Shown here one piece after another: positions 12,985 to 53,851 of a DNA stretch of 53,935 nucleotides (position 1 is the first letter of the stretch; each line of letters begins with the position of its first letter). The DNA lies in the NCBI GenBank assembly GCA_046290225.1, contig JBKAGE010000009.1, forward strand, positions 1 through 53,935, in the 5' to 3' direction. A model generated the notes under the pieces. The model worked only from the letters and a program-made list of their open reading frames with translations. It did no database searches and was not told where the DNA came from. The DNA comes from Bradymonadia bacterium. GTDB taxonomy: Bacteria; Myxococcota_A; Bradymonadia; UBA7976; UBA1532. A program made the position numbers and the translations under genes.

Positions 12985-13501
12985 GCGTAGGTGATGGCTG
13001 GGCCCTTGTAGGCAGTCATCGCTTCGCTCTGACTGCGTAGGCAGCTCTGTCGGCCGGCCTTCGGCCCGCCTTGGAGCTGCGTACACGTCGGCACACTCGC
13101 TGGCGCGAGCAGGCCTCCGGGTAGGCAGGGTCGCTCAATGCTGACGCATTGATTGCTCGCTCCCCTGCGTAAAAAGTCAGTTCTGGTGTGACTTTGCACT
13201 GATTCCGGCGCTGCTGGGGCTTTCGCCGAGCATTCACACTCAGAGGCTTGCAGGTTCGCGGTAGGTCGAATCCCGGCGGGGTTCAGCAACGAGATACAGA
13301 AGAAGCTCTTTACGCAGGGGAGCGAGCGAAAAGGGCGAAGCCCTGAGCGACCCTGCCTACCCGGAGGGGTGTCCGCGCAAGCGGATGCCCGAACGTGTAC
13401 GCGCCAGACGAGGTTGCCCGAAGGGCGACCGAAGGCCGGGCGCCTACGCAGGCAGAGCGCAGCGATGACTGCCTACAAAGGCTCAGCCACCGCTTGCATC
13501 A
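12985..13501. repeat. Palindromic intergenic element, family A copy 1 (REP/REPIN-like)
   Basis: Nested inverted repeats, e.g. perfect 24 bp 13114-13137/13344-13367 and 19 bp 13155-13173/13309-13327, around a ~135 bp core; inverted homolog at 29617-30136. Confidence 0.92.
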
Positions 13502-13589
13502 TTGACCATCCAAGCTTTCCAGCCCTTGCGCACAGATTCTTTTGTGTGCAAACGATCTGACCTCCAATCGTCACCACGAAACGAGGTCC

Positions 13590-15616: not shown

Positions 15617-16159
15617 ATGAAGACGATCTCGATCATGTGTGCGCTGCTGGCCCTCTGGGGCTGTGACGATGGCGGCGATGAGTCGTCCCCCGGTGGTGCT
15701 GGTGGGATGGGTGGTGTTGCCGGTGGTGGTTCGGGTGGCGGTGGCTCTGGCGGCACCTCGATGATGCCCGACGCGGCCATGGGCTCCATCGAGCTGGGTA
15801 CGGGCTTCCGGAGCTTCGAGTCTCTGGAAGACGGCCAGGAGGTGCCCATCATCGCAGGCATCCAAGGGGGCTTTCACATCTGGGGGGCCATTCGGGGTGA
15901 GCACTTCGATGGCTCTGAAGTGCGGATGCTCTTCGAGCTGGTGCAGGACGGCGAGGTGGTGGGCGGCGCCAACTACATCGACTTCATCACCCCCGACGAT
16001 GATGGGATCTACGAATATCCTGCCGTGGCCGTGGTCTTCGACGAGGCCAACCCCAACCTCTACGAGGACAAGCCCACCTTGATGCGGGTGCAGCTGACCG
16101 ACGCTGAGGGGCAGGTGCTCACCGACGAGATCACCCTCGACCCGTTCTGCTGTGAATAG
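15617..16159 (+). CDS. Hypothetical lipoprotein with Gly-rich linker
   Basis: ALWGC lipobox, Gly-rich spacer, acidic globular domain. Confidence 0.75.
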   Translation: MKTISIMCALLALWGCDDGGDESSPGGAGGMGGVAGGGSGGGGSGGTSMMPDAAMGSIELGTGFRSFESLEDGQEVPIIAGIQGGFHIWGAIRGEHFDGSEVRMLFELVQDGEVVGGANYIDFITPDDDGIYEYPAVAVVFDEANPNLYEDKPTLMRVQLTDAEGQVLTDEITLDPFCCE

Positions 16160-16187: not shown

Positions 16188-16584
16188 GCGGACGGCCGTG
16201 CTTGGGCACCGCCTGTAGCGGACGACCGCGCTGCGCGCCGTCTGTAGCGGACGCCTGCTGCGGCTTCGCCTTGCAGAGCTGTAGCGGACGCCGAGTCTGC
16301 CTTCGGCAGCCTGAGCTGTAGCTTTCTAAGAGACTTTTGGTGTGCCTGGTGGGTTTCTCAACCCAGGTAGGGGCTTACGCCGGAACTGGTGTGTCAGGGG
16401 CCAACAGCATTGGCGGTAGATGAACCCACACACGCCCCCCTCAACTGATCTTCAAAAAAGCTACAGGGAATTTGCCGTAGGCAAATGAGCGTCCGCTACA
16501 GCTTTCGCCGAAGGCGAGGCGTCCGCTACAGGCGCAGCGCAGCTGGGCCGTCCGCTACAGGCGGCCCGAAGGGCGGCCGTCCGC
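16188..16584. repeat. Palindromic intergenic element, family B copy 1 (CTGTAGCGGACG arrays)
   Basis: CTGTAGCGGACG at 16213, 16242, 16279 (plus partials); inverse CGTCCGCTACAG at 16490, 16520, 16549; hairpin spacers; ~135 bp core; second copy at 36813-37206. Confidence 0.93.
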
Positions 16585-16666
16585 TCACACTGCGTGGCAT
16601 GTGTGGCACACCTCCTGCTCTCCGAGCGCGGGCCTGACAACAGGCCAGATGTGGATCGGAGTCCCC

Positions 16667-17470
16667 ATGTTCAAGTTGTTGATCGCGTGTTGCGCCCTCT
16701 CTCTCTGGGCCAGCAGCGCTTCCGCTCAAAGCCGTGTCGATTGCTTTGCTGTGCTCAAAACCCCCGGTGACCAGCTCATCTTGAGCGACGAAGAGGCCTG
16801 TAACCGGGCCACCATGCCTTACTCCACCTTCAAAGTGCCCCTGGCCCTCATGGCCATGCAGGCCGGGGTGGTGAAATCCATCGAAGACGAGATCGAGTGG
16901 GATCCGAAACAAGATCCGGCGCGGGGATGGTGGCCTGACAGCTGGCGTGGATCCCAGAACCTGAGGGCGGCGCTGCACAGCTCCTCGGCGCCCTACTTTC
17001 GCACGCTGGCGCGATCCATGGGCCTTGTGCCCATTGCCAGAGCATTGAAGCTGTTTCGATATGGCAATCGACAGCTCGACCCCACCATCTTCCCTGGTCG
17101 TGTGTGGGTAAAGGGGCCCCTGGCCATCTCGCCTGTGGAGCAGCTCGACTTCCTCAAGCGGGTGCACACGCGTACCCTGCACGGCGTCGACGACGCGCAC
17201 ATCGAGCAGCTCGAGGCCGCCTGGGTCGACACCGCGCCGGGGCTGGAGCTGTTCGCCAAGAGCGGCACAGGGGCCCTCGGCGACGAGATGGTGGGGTGGT
17301 ATGTGGGCTACACCGTACACAATGACGAGACCCACTACTTCGCGTTGCGCCTCGTGGGGCCTGATGTGAAGTCCGTCACGGGATGGCATCGGCGATCAGA
17401 GGCCCGGCGGCTGCTCGTGAAGCACAGTGCATGGCCTGCAGAGGTCAAACTCGACGATCTGTCACAGTGA
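16667..17470 (+). CDS. Class D beta-lactamase-like / penicillin-binding transpeptidase domain protein
   Basis: PYSTFK (SxxK), YGN, WVKGPLAISPVEQ, KSGT and GWYVG motifs; signal peptide. Confidence 0.88.
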   Translation: MFKLLIACCALSLWASSASAQSRVDCFAVLKTPGDQLILSDEEACNRATMPYSTFKVPLALMAMQAGVVKSIEDEIEWDPKQDPARGWWPDSWRGSQNLRAALHSSSAPYFRTLARSMGLVPIARALKLFRYGNRQLDPTIFPGRVWVKGPLAISPVEQLDFLKRVHTRTLHGVDDAHIEQLEAAWVDTAPGLELFAKSGTGALGDEMVGWYVGYTVHNDETHYFALRLVGPDVKSVTGWHRRSEARRLLVKHSAWPAEVKLDDLSQ

Positions 17471-29598: not shown

Positions 29599-29616
29599 GC
29601 ATCTGGCGATTGGCTG

Positions 29617-30136
29617 TGATGCATGTCATGGCTGGGCCCTGGTAGGCAGTCATCGTTGCGCTCTGCCTGCGTAGGCGCCGTGCCTTCGGTCGCCCTGCGG
29701 GCAACCTCGTCTGGCGCGTACACGTTCGGGCATCCGCTTGCGCGGAACCCCTCCGGGTAGGCAGGGTCGCTCAATGCTAACGCATTGTTTGCTCGCTCCC
29801 CTGCGTAAAGAGCTTCTTCTGTCTCTTGTTGCTGATGCCCGCCGGGATTCGACCTACCGCGAACCTGCAAGCCCCTGCGTCTCAACGCTCGGTGTTAGCC
29901 CCAACAGCATTGGAAACAGCACACAGCCACACCAGAACTGGCTTTTTACGCAGGGGAGCGAGCAAACAATGCGTCAGCATTGAGCGACCCTGCCTACCCG
30001 GAGGCCTGCTCGCGCCAGCGAGTGTGCCGACGTGTACGCGACCGACGAGGCGGCCCGAAGGGCTGCCGAAGACCGGGCGCCTACGCAGGCAGAGCGCAGC
30101 GATGACTGCCTACAAAGGCCCAGCCATCACCTTCGC
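29617..30136. repeat. Palindromic intergenic element, family A copy 2 (inverted relative to copy 1)
   Basis: Same nested stems as 12985-13501, with the core in reverse-complement orientation. Confidence 0.92.
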
Positions 30137-30291
30137 CACTGTAAAATAGATTAGATGATGCTATTTATAGCAATTGAGATGCTAAATAAATCTTTTGATG
30201 GGCTGATGATGCCCGTTTTACCTCAAAACGGCTGGCACACCCTCTGCAATACACAGAATGCGAAACAGAGATTCGCTCAAAGGAGCTTGCC

Positions 30292-30933
30292 ATGCGTCGC
30301 CTGTGTACCCTGCTCATCGCCCTCGCCACCTTGATCCCCACCTTCGCCAGCGCATGCTGGTCCGGCATCTACCTGAGCGGTGAGCGACTCACCATCCGCG
30401 TCGCCGAAGACGACCTGCAATGGACCCCCGAGCTCGCTCAGAAGATGGGCGCTTTGCTCATACAAGGGGAAGCCTTGTTACCGCACGGCGTACAGGTCGA
30501 GGTCGATTTTGGTCAGGCCGAGATCTGCGAGGGCCCTGACCATTGCCGCATCCTCGAAGGCGTCACCCTCGACAACCTGCTCAGCCGGCTCGCCCTCGAG
30601 ATGAAGCTGCCTGCCAGGGCCATCAAAGAGGTGCAGGCCATGGAGACGCCTGTCTATGTCGTGCGGATCCCCACCGATGACGTGGCCCACGTCGCTCGGC
30701 AGATCAACGCAGACGACGCCTACCTGCACGGGAACATGGAGGTCGGTGACTTCCCCGGGCTCACAGCCCAGGCCTTGCCGGTGGTGAAAGATGAGATTTG
30801 GGTGGGCACCTTCATCGACAAGTTCGACGCCGAGAAGGCCGCTTGGGCGCTGATCAAGATGGGGCACAGCCCTGTGGTCCATCAGCTCGGTACCCCCTTG
30901 AAGAAGCACCAAGCCGTGAGTCACAAGCGCTGA
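30292..30933 (+). CDS. Secreted hypothetical protein, possible C-terminal SPOR-like motif
   Basis: RBS AAGGAG; signal peptide ending ASA; 'IWVGTFIDKFDAEKAAWAL'. Confidence 0.65.
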   Translation: MRRLCTLLIALATLIPTFASACWSGIYLSGERLTIRVAEDDLQWTPELAQKMGALLIQGEALLPHGVQVEVDFGQAEICEGPDHCRILEGVTLDNLLSRLALEMKLPARAIKEVQAMETPVYVVRIPTDDVAHVARQINADDAYLHGNMEVGDFPGLTAQALPVVKDEIWVGTFIDKFDAEKAAWALIKMGHSPVVHQLGTPLKKHQAVSHKR

Positions 30934-31222
30934 GAGGTCCTAACAAAACAGCTCCCGTCGCCAGGGGCGCAGCGCTGTTGAGTGCAGCCAGACGAAAGTA
31001 CCCCACGGGCAACTCTTCGCTCCGTCGGCTTCGCCTTTGTCGACTTCGAGTTGTCTGGCAAAGCCAGATACCATCGTCTGTCTGCACTCAGCACTTCGCG
31101 AGACATCCAAAACCGTCCTCGACGATGCTTTAAAGGCGCTAGCCGGCATCGCCTGCGGGTGTTCTGGATGTCTCACTCGTACCTCACGCCCCTGGCTCGG
31201 TCCGTCGTTCTGTTAGGACCTC
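30934..31222. mobile_element. MITE-like element with terminal inverted repeats and TGA target duplication
   Basis: Termini GAGGTCCTAACAAAAC / GTTCTGTTAGGACCTC (one mismatch); TGA at 30931-30933 and 31223-31225; long internal stems; no credible ORF. Confidence 0.8.
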
Positions 31223-31238
31223 TGAGTCTCGGCAGGGC

Positions 31239-36809: not shown

Positions 36810-36812
36810 GGA

Positions 36813-37206
36813 GCGGACGGCCGCCCTTCGGGCCGCCTGTAGCGGACGGTCATCGCCTTACGGCGACAGCCTGTAGCGGACGCCTGCTTCGGCTTCGCCT
36901 TGCAGAGCTGTAGCGGACGCCGAGTCTGCCTCCGGCAGCCTGAGCTGTAGCTTTTTAGAGAGTTATGGTGTGTCTGGTGGGCTTCTCAACCCAGATTGGG
37001 GCTTACGCCGGAACTGGTGCGTCATTGGGCCACAACGTTCGCGGTAGATGAGTCAACGCCCCCAAACTGATCTTCAAAAAGCTACAGGGAATTTGCCGTA
37101 GGCAAATGAGCGTCCGCTACAGCTCTCGCCGAAGGCGAGGCGTCCGCTACAGACGGCGCGTAACGCGGTCGTCCGCTACAGGCGGTGCGCAAGCACGGCC
37201 GTCCGC
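36813..37206. repeat. Palindromic intergenic element, family B copy 2
   Basis: CTGTAGCGGACG at 36837, 36871, 36908; inverse copies at 37111, 37141, 37170; fills almost the whole gap between two convergent stop codons. Confidence 0.93.
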
Positions 37207-38145
37207 TCAGTACGTCGGCTCGACGTAACCCTCACCGAATTTGCTCTTCCCTTCCGCCTCGTCTGCTGCGGCGGCCGCGTCAGCCTGTGACTTGGTGATC
37301 CAGGCGGCGCTCGCTGCCGGGGCCAGTGCCACGAGAGAGGTCACCGCCACCGCTGGCAGCGTCTTGGGCACCAGGGTGGCCACTGCCGCGGCCAGGGGCG
37401 CCGTGCTCAACAAGATCATGCTGGTCACCGGCAGGCCCGGATAGGCGTAGTGGTGGGCGTAGACCAGTACCCCGATGTAGCCCGTGAGCAGCACCGCCAC
37501 TCCACTGTGGCCGGCCTTCAGGTGAGGCCATCGCCAGCTGATGAGGGCCGCCATGCCGGACGCTGCGGCGAGGGCGCCGAGCAGCTGCGCCAGCTTGGCG
37601 CTCGAGCCCAGCAGGGCGGTGACTGCGGCGCCGATGCTCGCCACGCAGATGGCGGCGAAGATGGCCGGAGAGGCCGCCCGGACCTGCGCGCGATCCACCC
37701 CGAGCCAGAGCAGCAACGCCAGGCCTGCAGGCGCACCGACGTGCAGCAGCAAATCACTGGCCGTGGTCCATGTCTGCTCGATGCTCGTGGCCAGGGTCAG
37801 ATAGATGATCGCCCCAAGGCCGATGGCGATGGCCGGCATCACCCGAGCGATCCCTTGAGATTCCTCGCCGCGATCGAGGGCGGCGAAGAGCCCGAAGATG
37901 CCCAGCAGCAAGAAGGGCAGCCAGGCGCCACCATCCGTGATGGGCCAGTCGGGCAGCCCACCGGTGATGCCGAAGTAAGATCCGGCCATGCCCAGGGCGA
38001 TGCCCGCGGCGAGAGGCCAGCGCCGAGCGCGGGACCCCCGACCGCCGGTGAAGTGGCCCACGAGGGCGAACACGATCACAGAGAAGGCGGGCAGGATCGC
38101 AGTGAAGATCGCGCCCTTGATTTGCAGCGAGGTGGTGGCATCCAT
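37207..38145 (-). CDS. Hypothetical integral membrane protein
   Basis: Many hydrophobic helices; RBS GAGGAG. Confidence 0.75.
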   Translation of the reverse strand: MDATTSLQIKGAIFTAILPAFSVIVFALVGHFTGGRGSRARRWPLAAGIALGMAGSYFGITGGLPDWPITDGGAWLPFLLLGIFGLFAALDRGEESQGIARVMPAIAIGLGAIIYLTLATSIEQTWTTASDLLLHVGAPAGLALLLWLGVDRAQVRAASPAIFAAICVASIGAAVTALLGSSAKLAQLLGALAAASGMAALISWRWPHLKAGHSGVAVLLTGYIGVLVYAHHYAYPGLPVTSMILLSTAPLAAAVATLVPKTLPAVAVTSLVALAPAASAAWITKSQADAAAAADEAEGKSKFGEGYVEPTY

Positions 38146-43211: not shown

Positions 43212-43266
43212 TCAGCGCGCAGGAGATTCAGCGCGCAGGAGATTCAGCGCGCAGGGGACTCAGCGC
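43212..43266. repeat. 16-bp tandem repeat (TCAGCGCGCAGGAGAT, three copies plus a partial)
   Basis: Units start at 43212, 43228 and 43244; the partial at 43260 coincides with the stop codon of the convergent gene. Confidence 0.9.
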
Positions 43267-46200
43267 CGGCGGCGGCGCAGCCCCAGGGCCCCGAGGGCCA
43301 TCAGCATGCCGAAGAGCAGACCAGCAGGGCCGCCGCGGGCCGCCGAGGTGGAGCAACTCGCGGGGTTCGAGCCGGCCACGAAGCCCGGATCGTCCTGACC
43401 CGGCACCCCACCGTCGGGGTTCCCGCCGCCGTTGGGCACCAGCGGATCATCATCCGTGCCATCGTCGATGCCGTCGCCGTCGGTGTCGGGGTTCAGGGGA
43501 TCAGTCTCCCCAGGGTCCACCTCACCGTTGGCGTTCTCGTCTTCCACACCATCAGGCAGGCCGTCGCCATCGGTGTCGGGCACGCGGGGGTCAGTCTCAC
43601 CGTCGTCCACCTCACCGTTGGCGTTCTCGTCTTCCACACCATCAGGCAGCTGATCGCCGTCGGTGTCGGGGTTGTTCGGGTCCGTCTCGCCCGTATCGAA
43701 GTTGCCGTTGCCGTTCTCGTCTTCGATGCCGTCGGGCAGGCCATCGTCGTCGGAATCGGGATCGAGGGGATCAGTGGGGTTGTTGCCGTTCACCTCGGGG
43801 CCATCGTTGATGCCGTCGCCGTCAGTGTCGGGGTTCAAGGGGTCAGTCTCGCCCTCGTCCACCTCGCCATTGCGGTTCACATCTTCTTCGCCGTCGGGCA
43901 GGCCGTCGTCGTCGGTATCGGGGTTGTTCGGATCGGTCTCGTCGTCGTCCACCTCACCGTCGCCGTCCACATCCTCGAAGCCATCAGGCAGGCCGTCGTC
44001 GTCGGTATCGGGGTTGTTCGGGTCCGTCTCACCCTCATCGATCATGCCGTCGGCGTCTTCGTCCTCCACGCCGTCGTCGAGGCCGTCGTCGTCGGTGTCG
44101 GGATCGAGGGGATCCGTGGGGTTGTCACCGTTCACCTCGGTGCCGTCGTCGATGCCGTCGTCGTCGGTGTCGCGATCATTGGGATCCGTGCCGATCTCCG
44201 TCTCTTCGAGATCCGTGAGGCCGTCACCATCGGTGTCGTTCACCACATCGTCCACGGGATCGAGGGGGTTGCGGCCGCCGTTGACCTCGCTGCCGTCAGG
44301 CTCGCCACCATCATCGGTGTCGGGGTCCCGGGGGTCGGTCTCGCCCTCGTCCACAGTGCCGTTGGCGTTCTCGTCTTCTTCGCCGTCTTCGAGACCGTCG
44401 TTGTCCGAGTCGGGATCACGGGGGTTGGTCTCCCCATCGTCTACCCGGCCGTTGCGGTTCTCGTCCTCGACACCATCAGGGATGCCGTCGTCATCAGTGT
44501 CGGGATCCCGGGGGTCAGTCTCCAGCGGATCCACCATGCCGTTGCGGTCCGTATCCTCAGTGCCGTCGGGGATGCCGTCGTTGTCGGTGTCAGGGTTGTT
44601 CGGATCAGTCTCACCCTCGTCGAGGTTGCCATCCTGGTCCGCGTCCTCGACGCCGTCGGGGATACCATCGTCATCGGTGTCGGGATCAGTGGGATCCGTG
44701 GGGTTCGAGGCAGTGGTCTCGGTGCCGTCGGGGATGCCGTCGTCATCAGTGTCGGGATCATCCGGATCAGTCTCACCGGGGTCGACCATGCCATTGCCGT
44801 TGGGATCTTCCCGGTCATCGGGCAGGCCGTCGCCGTCGCGATCACCACTGCCGCCCATGTCGTCGTCGGGGTTGTCCACGGGGTTGCGGCCGCCCTCGAC
44901 CTCGCTGCCGTCGAGCTCGCCACCATCGTCTGTGTCGGGATCTCGGGGGTTGGTCTCCTGACCCTGGTCGAAGTTGCCGTCGCCGTTGGCGTCTTCCTCG
45001 CCGTCGGTGAGGCCATCATCGTCAGTGTCCTGGTCGAGGGGGTTCGTGGGGTTGTTGCCGTCCACCTCGATGCCGTCGGTGAGGCCATCACCGTCGGTGT
45101 CGGGGTTGGTCGGATCAGTCTCGCCCTCGTCCACTGCGCCGTCTTCGTCGCGGTCCTCGCGGCCATCTTGCAGGCCATCACCATCAGAGTCGGGGTTGCG
45201 GGGATCGGTGCCCGCCTCGCCGTTCACCTCAATGCCGTCGTTGAGGCCATCGTCGTCGGTGTCGCGATCAGCAGGGTTGGTCTCGTCTTCGTCGAGGTTA
45301 CCGTCGTTGTCGGCGTCCTCGACACCATCGAGCAGACCATCGCCGTCGGTGTCACCTCGAAGCGGATCAGTGGGGTTGTTGCCATTCACTTCGACCCCGT
45401 CGGTGAGATCGTCACCGTCAGTGTCGGGGTTGTTCGGGTCGGTCTCCCCAGGATCGATGTCACCCGTGCGGTTCAGATCTTCCTGGCCATCCTGAAGGCC
45501 ATCATCGTCGGTGTCGGGATCGAGGGGGTTGGTGGGGTTGCCGCCAAGCACCTCAGTGCCGTCGTTGAGGCCGTCGTTGTCGGAGTCGGGATCGAGGGGA
45601 TCCGTCTCGTCCGGATCGCGAACACCATCGCGGTTGGCGTCTTCCTCGCCATCCTCGAGGCCATCGTCGTCGGAATCGGGATCAGTGGGATCTGTCTCGT
45701 CTGGGTCACGATTGCCGTCGCGATCACGGTCCTCGGTGCCGTCGGGGATGCCGTCGCCGTCGGTGTCGGGGTTGTTCGGATCGGTCTCTCCAGGATCGAC
45801 CATGCCGTTGCCGTTGCGATCCTCGATGGGATCCGGGAGGCCGTCGCCGTCGGTGTCGAAGATCTCGTCCTCGCCGCCGACGTCGATCACGTTCACCGGC
45901 GCGTCGCACTGACGACACAGCGCGCGATCGGTGAGGGCCCGGGCACCAAAGACCCAGGTGTCGTAGATTTGGGGAATGTCACGGGCCTGGCCACCCTCCG
46001 GGGGCACGCGGCGGGGCTGCACCCAGCGACGACGCTGGCGGGGGATCAGACCAGAGCCTTCAGGGAGCACCTCCACAGCATCAGAGCCGTCGACGAGATC
46101 AACGTCAGTGCGGATGGGGGTGTCGTTCCAGTACATTTGCAGCGGAGAGAGCGCGCCATTGGCGCCGGCCTGCTCCGAGATCACCATGCCCTGGGCGTTG

Positions 46201-47468
46201 TCCTCGATGTCCACCATGGGCAGGTGGGTCTCGCCGGCGAGCAGGCGCAGCTGGAACCGGTACTGGCCGGGGGCCACCACCTGGCCGTTGGCGTCGGTGC
46301 CGTCCCAGGTGACGCGGTTCTCGCCGATGACGGCCTGGCCGACCATCTGGGCGTCCACCGAGCCGTCGAAGACGTTATCCTGGTTGGTGTCGACGGTGAT
46401 GCGGTATCGGCCGGCGATGTTGCTCACGAAGGTGAAGTCGCCAGTGTCCTGAATACCATCACCGTTAGGGGTGATGGTGTTGGTGCCGGCCTCGTCGTTG
46501 AACTCGACGGCATCCATCTGAGGCGCTGCCGGTGCCGCAGGGGCTGGATCGGGGTAGTTCAGGTAGATGCTGTACTGACGACGGACCGCCTGAGTGGCCC
46601 CAGCGCCATCGAAGCCACAATCGCCGGCGCCGTCGGGATCACCATCACGGCACCAGCTCTCGCTGGGGTGATCGGTGATGCCCACCTCGTTCGCCAGCAG
46701 CTGGTAGCGGAAGCCCCGCATCTGCTCGAAGTCGATGACGAAGACGTGGGCGCCGGTCGCTTCGGCGGTGGTCACGGGCGCCACCGCGAAGAAGTCGGCG
46801 TCGGTGCCATAGGCGAAGCGGTGGGCGTTGAAGAACCAGTGTTCGCTGTTGAGGCGGCCGCCGGCGGTGTCCTGGCCGTTGGCGTCGAGGACGTCGACGG
46901 CGAAGTAGCGGGTTGAACTGCCGCTGCCGATGGTGAGCGTCTCGGGCTCACCGGCGAAGTTCACCTGCCACTGACCAGGCCGATCAGCGACGAAGTCGAT
47001 GTAGTTCCCCGGGCCCGTCTGAGCGTTGCAGTAGCCTGCTGCGCCGTTGACAGCGAAGGCCTGTACACACCGCCCCTGGCCGGCCCCCCCGGCGAATGGG
47101 GCGTTGGAGCCCACGGCACGGCACTGGCCGTTGGCGCCCTCACAATCGTTGTCGTTGTTGCACAGCACGTCGACAGGCGGGGAAATCAAAATCTCCGCCC
47201 CGACTCGGTGATCGACGAGGTTCTCGTGGGCTTGCCCAGGAGACTCGTCCACCGGCACGTCGGCGTCGACGTCGGCCTCTTGTACTCCATCGTCGCTGGA
47301 GCACACGCGGATGCGCTCTCCAGCGGCTTGGATGTTGACGTTCAGAGTGCTGTTCCCCTCCAGCCCCTGACTGTTGCCGAGCTGTGGTGAGCCCTCTGGG
47401 AGTGCCCAAGCACTCACAGGCAGCAGCACGGTGGCTGTCGCCACCAAAATCCGGGCACGTGTCTTCAC
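43260..47468 (-). CDS. Large surface protein with FlgD-Ig-like domain, thrombospondin type 3-like Ca-binding repeats and a MYXO-CTERM-like tail
   Basis: Signal peptide; ITPNGDG...WDGTDANG...GQY; long run of D(T/S)DxDGxxDG.E / GETDP repeats; C-terminal Cys + TM + RRRRR. Confidence 0.9.
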
Positions 47469-53696: not shown

Positions 53697-53851
53697 GGCG
53701 CGGAGGTGGCGTTAGCCGCCGTGACGCCGGCGATCTCCCGCCCAGCTGCGACCTTTCCGTCCTCGGCGCAGCGCTGCTGCGCCTGCGGGTGAAAGCCCGC
53801 ATCTGGACGAGACCTCACCGACCTCACGACGACTGCCGCCACCTCCGCGCC
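53697..53851. other. Folded intergenic element closed by a perfect 15-bp inverted repeat
   Basis: GGCGCGGAGGTGGCG (53697-53711) / CGCCACCTCCGCGCC (53837-53851) with internal stems. Confidence 0.55.

Follow-up and report, generated by a model that had tools for sequence, protein, structure and literature searches.

Bacterial intergenic repeats built as modular mosaics, in which inverted ends surround a middle that can be exchanged, include the neisserial dRS3/RS and the streptococcal BOX sequences; their likeness to the elements treated here, taken from their general description, is a lead. Among the closest described systems are the GTAG REP sequences with their BIMEs, REPINs and REPtrons, in which CT precedes GTAG, inverted arms surround a conserved spacer, many extragenic copies lie near stop codons and mismatches in the stem are conserved (PMC3733652, PMC8266576 and PMC6006769). 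REP dimers with conserved spacers were found within 20 bp of convergent 3' ends (PMC3733652), and the transposase TnpA-REP cuts at CT and requires GTAG (PMC8266576). Another related group comprises the intervening sequences (IVS) of 23S rRNA genes that carry an ORF of the S23p/PF05635/TIGR02436 type between complementary arms and are excised by RNase III; structures of the protein are available (2GSC, 2RLD), and the family is described as having no known catalytic activity (PMC4990558). Gut-1 (RF01706), described as a non-coding RNA of unknown function, alternates a constant short word with variable hairpins (PMC2864571). Targeting in DGRs requires that a stop codon be closely followed by a GC-rich DNA hairpin whose loop reads GRNA (PMC3240598), and the DGR protein Avd is a basic pentamer binding DNA as well as RNA (PMC5758913). 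Finally, mini-hairpins of the types GCGNAGC and GCGNNAGC are reported to be extraordinarily stable in DNA and much less so in RNA, and they occur at single-strand priming sites and at an N4 promoter (PMC13037366).

Here we describe a repeat element, B1, that combines traits of several of these systems. It lies in a window of 53,935 nt, i.e. the whole stretch of DNA that was analysed, which represents contig C9 of the 8.58-Mb Bradymonadia assembly GCA_046290225.1 (64% GC, 99.4% complete, 83 contigs).

Results

Layout of B1 and distribution of its family

B1 (16188..16586, without strand assignment) is a complete fold-back element of a repeat family that we call B, with the layout O4-O5-P3-I1 / core / I2-P1-O2s-O6. 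The inverted arrays of a 12-bp repeat proposed in the first-pass annotation are present as exact copies of the linker CTGTAGCGGACG at 16213, 16242 and 16279 on the plus strand and at 16490, 16520 and 16549 on the minus strand, and the element extends slightly past them, from GCGGACG at 16188 to CGTCCGCTC finishing at 16586. The left arm on the plus strand begins with the terminal shortened linker (G)GCGGACG (16188..16194) and continues with the outer module O4 (16195..16212), a bottom-strand hairpin with a G.G mismatch and a rare CCAA loop variant, the first complete linker (16213..16224), the outer module O5 (16225..16241) with a c(GCA)g loop on the bottom strand, the second linker (16242..16253), the penultimate module P3 (16254..16278), whose bottom strand has a bulged T and a c(GAA)g loop, the third linker (16279..16290) and the innermost left module I1 together with the shortened linker CTGTAGC (16291..16322). 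The core of about 140 nt (16323..16459, plus strand) is unstructured and homologous to the core of a second family, A; it contains block 1, TGGTGTG, common to both families (16338..16344, plus), a mini-hairpin GC-GNNA-GC on the bottom strand approximately 32 nt past block 1 (16372..16381, minus) and block 3, GCGGTAG (16413..16419, plus), after which differing right ends of the core start. A shortened linker and the innermost right module I2 with its c(GTA)g loop on the top strand (16460..16489, minus) lead into the right arm (16490..16586, minus), in which the three linkers alternate with P1 (16502-16519), O2s (16532-16548) and O6 (16561-16577) before the terminal CGTCCGCTC. With RNA parameters both strands of B1 are predicted to fold into a long rod (z ~ -13).

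The neighbouring genes lie outside the element. An upstream ORF of 180 aa without Pfam family (15617..16159, plus) has its stop 28 nt before B1, and directly after B1 an ORF with a transpeptidase fold begins (16601..17470, plus), which resembles class D beta-lactamases but remains below the curated cut-off (NF012161, 127 bits vs 250). The second of the two B elements in the window, B2 (36811..37208, again without strand), carries six further exact copies of CTGTAGCGGACG between 36837 and 37181 and fills the gap between two convergent genes, being 3 and 0 nt away from their stop codons. The innermost left hairpin loop reads GAA in B1 and GGA in B2, as first annotated. The 12 matches in the window, a number reached in 0 of 100 shuffles, compare with 0.34 expected. 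Elsewhere in the window, a 1402-aa ORF on the minus strand (43260-47468) contains many repeats of 90 and 162 nt, presumably calcium-binding ones.

The first-pass annotation regarded the family as refutable if only these two copies existed. Counting the linker over the genome, as it had proposed, gave 197 exact copies in 45 clusters, including 28 two-armed elements with a core, while letter-permuted 12-mers reached a mean of 2.7 and a maximum of 58. The remaining clusters, among those listed, are single arms, truncated copies and arm-to-arm deletions. Core-less copies at C35:489986, C77:18805, C82:20938 and C49:26734 have left and right arms fused at short shared words, which is expected from deletion across a long hairpin.

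Contigs from four marine sequencing runs of three studies carry arms together with core parts in which other letters occur; therefore the family is present outside the assembly GCA_046290225.1. No DNA match to the element was obtained in 40 relatives, and the core pattern had 0 matches in the genome contig collection searched. The tandem 12-mer pattern matched nine times in metagenomes; the matches listed are unrelated, mostly coding repeats, and none of them fits the core or arm profiles. A core model gave 10 weak matches in 8 of 100 genomes of the class, none of the seven inspected having inverted arms, and 10 short matches in 9 of 400 genomes of the phylum, none with arrays. One pattern match without arms was found among viral sequences, and Rfam gave nothing at gathering score for element and window, just four chance-level matches.

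Arm grammar and hairpin rules

From its outer end inwards, an arm starts with a shortened linker (T)G-AGCGGACG, followed by between one and three outer modules (O), a single penultimate (P) and a single innermost module (I), and then by CTGTAGC and the core. The usual end of a copy, (T)G-AGCGGACG, has the outside G in 42 of 46 ends and the preceding T in 26 of 46. The order O(n)-P-I applies to 46 of the 56 arms by a strict parse and to 53 of 56 after hand correction of chance upstream matches and mismatched linkers. The spacers had been annotated as unique and self-complementary. Their self-complementarity holds (17, 25, 18 and 17 nt), but the same modules recur at many loci: the catalogue of spacer modules suggested by that annotation comprises 270 entries, 256 of which belong to 16 recurring classes, and rarer types complete a kit of about 20. 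A CRISPR-like guide array with unique acquired spacers is therefore ruled out by this recurrence. The combination of modules differs in all 28 elements. Some modules prefer one side, with I1 on the left in 27/28, I2 on the right in 22 of 26 parsed and P1 on the right in 21/28 elements. No coordination between left and right B arms was detected, since the choices are independent both in length (equal in 12/28 vs 13.4 expected) and in outer class (the same on both arms in 4 vs 4.7 expected).

The loops follow the rule c(GNA)g or c(GNNA)g on the strand opposite GTAG. Of the 261 loops on this strand (14 unclassified modules left out), 256 have a C-G closure, and the loop types include 164 GNA (GAA 86, GCA 37, GGA 26, GTA 15), 35 AAA, 35 GNRA and 10 GNYA types; the C-G-closed triloops end with A in 200 of 202 cases and accept any of the four letters in the middle. 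Covariation is located in the modules, where three classes appear with both A...T and G...C at the first and last base. On the strand reading CGTCCGCTACAG, outer modules keep a G.G mismatch and P modules a bulged T, and module variants yield G-T wobble pairs on the same strand. Six nucleotides, CGGACG, separate GTAG from the covarying module stem; an alternative register in which the stem adjoins GTAG is possible only for the A...T variants. The arms of family A obey the same rule in 272 of 314 loops on the TAC strand and in 0 of 261 on the GTA strand, and many of their loops are non-GNRA tetraloops. This loop and strand rule, taken together with the DNA-specific stability of such mini-hairpins, suggests that selection acts on the hairpins in the form of single-stranded DNA, on the strand without GTAG and so in the 3' arm of either strand.

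Placement of the copies

A crude gene caller placed 14 of the 27 B copies between convergent genes, 12 between tandem and one between divergent genes; it classified 265 of 1827 background gaps as convergent. Arms facing a gene end start at -3 to +12 nt from the stop codon in 29 of 40 cases, and in seven the TGA within the terminal TGAGCGGACG itself provides the stop. All 27 B copies examined are situated between protein-coding ORFs, and the window has no Rfam match to rRNA. Tested at three junction positions, the 18 elements with both ends parsed showed no target duplication, apart from one 2-nt match. A sigma-70-like promoter was not found in the element, and the one terminator-like site, on the minus strand, falls in the range of the shuffles (0.5 +/- 0.8). 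A secondary role as transcript 3' end or two-way terminator is likely.

Core and kinship of families A and B

The first-pass annotation interpreted the core as structured, based on an apparent compensatory change (cctgg...ccagg in B1 vs tctgg...ccaga in B2). This did not withstand comparison of more copies: the outer pair is Watson-Crick in only 9 of 27 cores, 7 of 27 have all pairs of the 5-bp stem, and in the covariation analysis that it had proposed 264 of 500 shuffles of a 16-copy alignment reach the observed number of two-sided changes. For the two strands of 26 distinct cores, the structure conservation indices (SCI) were 0.22 and 0.19 and the mean z -0.37 and -0.24, so that a structured core, as RNA or DNA, was rejected. 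The single structure retained is the mini-hairpin GC-GNNA-GC, present in 64 of 69 cores, with three pairs and 100% of cells paired in 16 copies. Family B cores have a mean identity of 79.5%; no significant coding or helical periodicity was found (best p 0.77), and change is not adenine-specific (A 0.118, C 0.157, G 0.136, T 0.087). DGR-like mutation is hence ruled out. The reverse transcriptases of the genome are retron-type and not DGR-class.

The blocks TGGTGTG, mini-hairpin and GCGGTAG follow each other at fixed spacings of about 32 and 39-40 nt, and all three also occur in the core of family A, whose arms are unrelated. Family A has about 45 copies in the genome with arms delimited by GTA words. 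Two of them, with approximate ends and no strand assignment, are in the window, A1 (12985..13510; GTA-delimited hairpin arms, core 13170-13314) and A2 (29608..30141; core 29804-29948 on the minus strand). An earlier core search was seeded with both A and B cores, hence a profile made from A cores only served as independent test; it detected 25 B cores, six at E<0.01 and the best at 2e-5, and had four other matches, all with E>1. Moreover, a complete B arm, the core and a complete A arm form one hybrid element in contig C82, and at C35:507933 a left half of B is joined to a third type of right end. Families A and B thus share a core with three blocks at fixed distance and exchange arms. Four-gamete incompatibility is common (241 of 302 distant site pairs in B), and linkage falls with distance in A (rho -0.33) but not significantly in B; this pattern fits exchange among copies, and recurrent mutation also contributes.

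Beyond the outermost GTA, family A copies show a consensus fading over 40-60 nt, for instance at 12985-13510, C50:18052 and C77:40027. In 31 elements the two ends of the same copy resemble each other more than ends taken from separate copies do (0.625 vs a shuffle mean of 0.506 and a maximum of 0.553 in 5000 shuffles), so that either copying or correction of one end from the other appears to have taken place; such likeness was not seen in family B.

Genes between inverted arms and search for a mobility enzyme

A scan for inverted arms not more than 4 kb apart yielded 132 pairs genome-wide. Inside A, B or C arms it found only two genes of the PF05635/TIGR02436 type and one transposase-like ORF. 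In contig C77 a frameshifted four-helix-bundle gene stands between two full family A arms and is joined where the core normally starts, and in C72 an intact one lies between arms of a third family, C. These two are the only PF05635 matches in the genome, and both are between inverted arms. In family B no copy was found whose arms enclose a gene; the link of this family to the gene passes through family A. The C72 protein has a pI of 9.0, and its model (pLDDT 95.5) best matches 2GSC and 2RLD (TM 0.87-0.88), followed by DGR Avd (TM 0.71-0.80), which by Z-score is level with generic helical bundles (Z 13.7-14.8). Inverted matches between the flanks were detected at 8 of 12 PF05635 loci in relatives. 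In a GTDB set of 73 loci, 60 of which had enough flanking sequence, 31 of the 60 had inverted arms, and the controls gave 1 in 60 for mismatched pairs and 0 in 57 for far flanks; these arms are short tandem arrays of 6-7 nt and not hairpin kits, and none of the loci matches the A/B core. Our literature search, with most subscription papers outside reach, found no paper tying a PF05635-type gene to dispersed repeats.

Family C, for example at C72:82266-83361 (L031), has (GGCACG)n arms around a variable core of about 220 nt and includes 49 paired and 26 unpaired arm matches, which come within 300 nt of 30 contig ends; its core shows no detectable kinship to the A/B core. A 387-aa transposase-like ORF is inserted in a family C core with a short duplication at C50:55581-57087 (L213). 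Of the 88 occurrences of the word AAGAGAGTT, 77 come after a hairpin, 13 at the inner end of B arms and 64 at the outer end of C arms; the word is possibly a site common to the families.

A rayt gene flanked by the repeat, for which the first-pass annotation had recommended a search, was not found, and no Y1 gene was detected between arms within 4 kb. PF01797 (Y1) had no match in the 99.4% complete genome, the control being positive in 6 of 14 genomes, and a profile built from 22 Y1 proteins of the same family reached a best E of 0.87 against six-frame ORFs. Y1 genes are present in 9 of 27 other genomes of the family; among 16 of these loci that were checked none has module arrays and two have short inverted repeats. 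No B arm is placed within 300 nt of a contig end. Since the assembly is split into 83 contigs, a RAYT gene could be missing from it. Further searches of the genome gave no match for PF13366 (GxxExxY), PF02371 (IS110) and PF04480 (DUF559), none for PF04986, though its control also matched nowhere, and one for PF01541 in a 625-aa frame at C35. The genome encodes two reverse transcriptases (RTs), both scoring best with retron models; two convergent genes of this type (L094, L095) enclose a small family A remnant at C79:178718-180977.

Other repeats of the genome were also recorded. An element of about 160 nt with GAGCACCATAAAC ends and flanking TA interrupts one B and one A core (C78:372744-372903 and C34:361000-361150), and its middle resembles an inverted-end repeat of the window (30930-31226) with AGAGGTCCTAACAAAACAG ends, the end word of which matches five times genome-wide. 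The palindrome at 53697-53851 of the window belongs to a further family with CTGC.CGCCTGCG hairpins. Related arms occur at C34:562150, C36:153145-154952 and C46:55004, and the pair in C36 encloses two ORFs, one of which we take to encode a small multidrug-transporter-like protein.

Discussion

The A/B system is a lineage-restricted variant of composite palindromic repeats with an unusually clear set of rules. Family B is likened to REPINs or BIMEs in its way of working, because it has CT-GTAG, inverted arms around a conserved middle, many extragenic copies near stop codons and conserved stem mismatches. Unlike these, each arm is an array of three to five units whose order is fixed and which come from a set of about 20 modules, stability resides on the strand lacking GTAG, and one core serves two unrelated arm families. 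The CT regarded as cleavage site of REP sequences (PMC8266576) precedes GTAG in the linker, whereas GTAG is found 6 nt from the stem instead of 0-2 nt before it. The first-pass annotation had inferred a REPtron with the transposase gene replaced by a structured core. This view is supported by CT before GTAG, the inverted arms, the extragenic position behind stop codons and a layout of arm, cargo and arm that allows a gene to stand instead of the core; however, the gene in that place encodes a four-helix bundle (in family A) and not a RAYT, a Y1 gene was not detected, the stable loops are opposite GTAG and the core is unstructured. Two of the features defining a REPtron, GTAG adjoining the stem and a rayt gene, are accordingly missing from family B. 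In the main texts of the REP literature examined we have not seen an ordered combinatorial arm or a core common to unrelated arm families.

The ORF-bearing 23S rRNA IVS resemble family A in contig C77 and family C in C72 by a gene within complementary arms, but the elements described here are not in rRNA genes, have hairpin kits as arms, are mostly gene-less and follow a loop rule that points to DNA. The resemblance to Gut-1 concerns the layout only, as family B has another word, occurs in another lineage and has no RF01706 match. With the DGRs, the C72 protein shares the Avd fold, and the DGR hairpin behind a stop codon parallels the B hairpins; unlike DGRs, the genome has retron-type RTs and cores free of adenine-specific change. 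This parallel may serve as a lead.

At a probability of roughly one half, we regard B1 as a gene-less, non-autonomous derivative of a four-helix-bundle fold-back cassette that is copied as single-stranded DNA behind stop codons. The best reading of its kinship to the PF05635 cassettes would run via family A, judged from the shared core sequence, the A/B hybrid and the gene in C77. The element may be copied while transcription or replication leaves it exposed behind as single-stranded DNA. The sites recognised would be the core blocks together with the mini-hairpins in the 3' arm of either strand; an Avd-like basic pentamer, the predicted partner, could bind these sites and recruit a putative nicking, priming or repair activity. 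New combinations of modules and core segments would arise when copies undergo in-register exchange at the constant linker. More generally, these elements could represent a class of mobile DNA without transposase of its own, in which an Avd-like pentamer recognises mini-hairpin arrays and a shared core, host enzymes of nicking, priming or repair copy the cassettes behind stop codons, and modules and cores are traded between arm families; this generalisation is tentative. The copy number and arm grammar, the loop and strand rule, the placement without target duplication and the inverted arms at PF05635 loci speak for the gene-less cassette. Against it count that no gene-bearing B copy was found, that the family A gene is frameshifted, that the GTDB arms are short tandem arrays with no match to the A/B core and that Avd ties with generic bundles by Z-score. 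The PF05635 protein has no known catalytic activity and therefore may be a passenger.

Such a passenger role is part of an explanation in which REPIN/BIME-type GTAG repeats were spread by a lost or unassembled RAYT, CT cleavage with strand transfer shuffled the modules and the four-helix gene was cargo. The CT-GTAG in every linker, the cutting at CT and the need for GTAG known from TnpA-REP, the REP dimers near convergent 3' ends, the lack of target duplication and the Y1 genes in other genomes of the family speak for it. We nevertheless consider it unlikely, given that neither PF01797 nor the Y1 profile found a candidate in an almost complete genome, that no B arm lies at a contig border and that none of the 16 Y1 loci checked in the family has module arrays. 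GTAG is distant from the stem, the stable loops and the wobble pairs are on the other strand, the linkers of family A have only GTA in common, and blind exchange at CT would lose the O-P-I order. The element might also act mainly as RNA, as a 3'-end rod cut by RNase III or a two-way terminator similar to the 23S rRNA intervening sequences, and spread via an RNA intermediate with the Avd-like protein and an RT in trans. The excess of copies between convergent genes, the rod fold, the terminator-like site, the RNase III excision of ORF-bearing IVS (PMC4990558) and the two RT genes are in line with this proposal, which is rather improbable in view of GNA triloops and GNYA tetraloops that suit DNA, RTs of the retron type, core changes that are not adenine-specific and a terminator count inside the shuffle range. 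A DDE-transposase MITE whose terminal inverted repeats are long and composite would account for inverted arms, a non-coding centre, many copies and the sharp outer ends of family B, but this reading is largely refuted by the absent target duplication and hence very improbable. Moreover, the two arms of one copy are made of different modules, the ends of family A fade over about 40-60 nt, and the sole transposase-like gene enclosed by arms of families A, B or C was inserted later, in a family C core.

Collectively, the genome offers three multiplied families, two of them with a gene-bearing copy, and its approximately 270 modules are a natural mutation scan of a hairpin with C-G closure, A as last loop base, a free middle base and a G.G mismatch or bulged T on one strand only. 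These rules supply ready substrates and negative controls for binding or mobility assays. The findings bear on the spread of REP-like repeats without RAYT and on PF05635, for which structures have been solved without a function. If a class of mobile DNA without own transposase exists as outlined above, it would provide PF05635 with a function and rRNA intervening sequences, heptamer-armed repeats and Gut-1-like arrays with one explanation.
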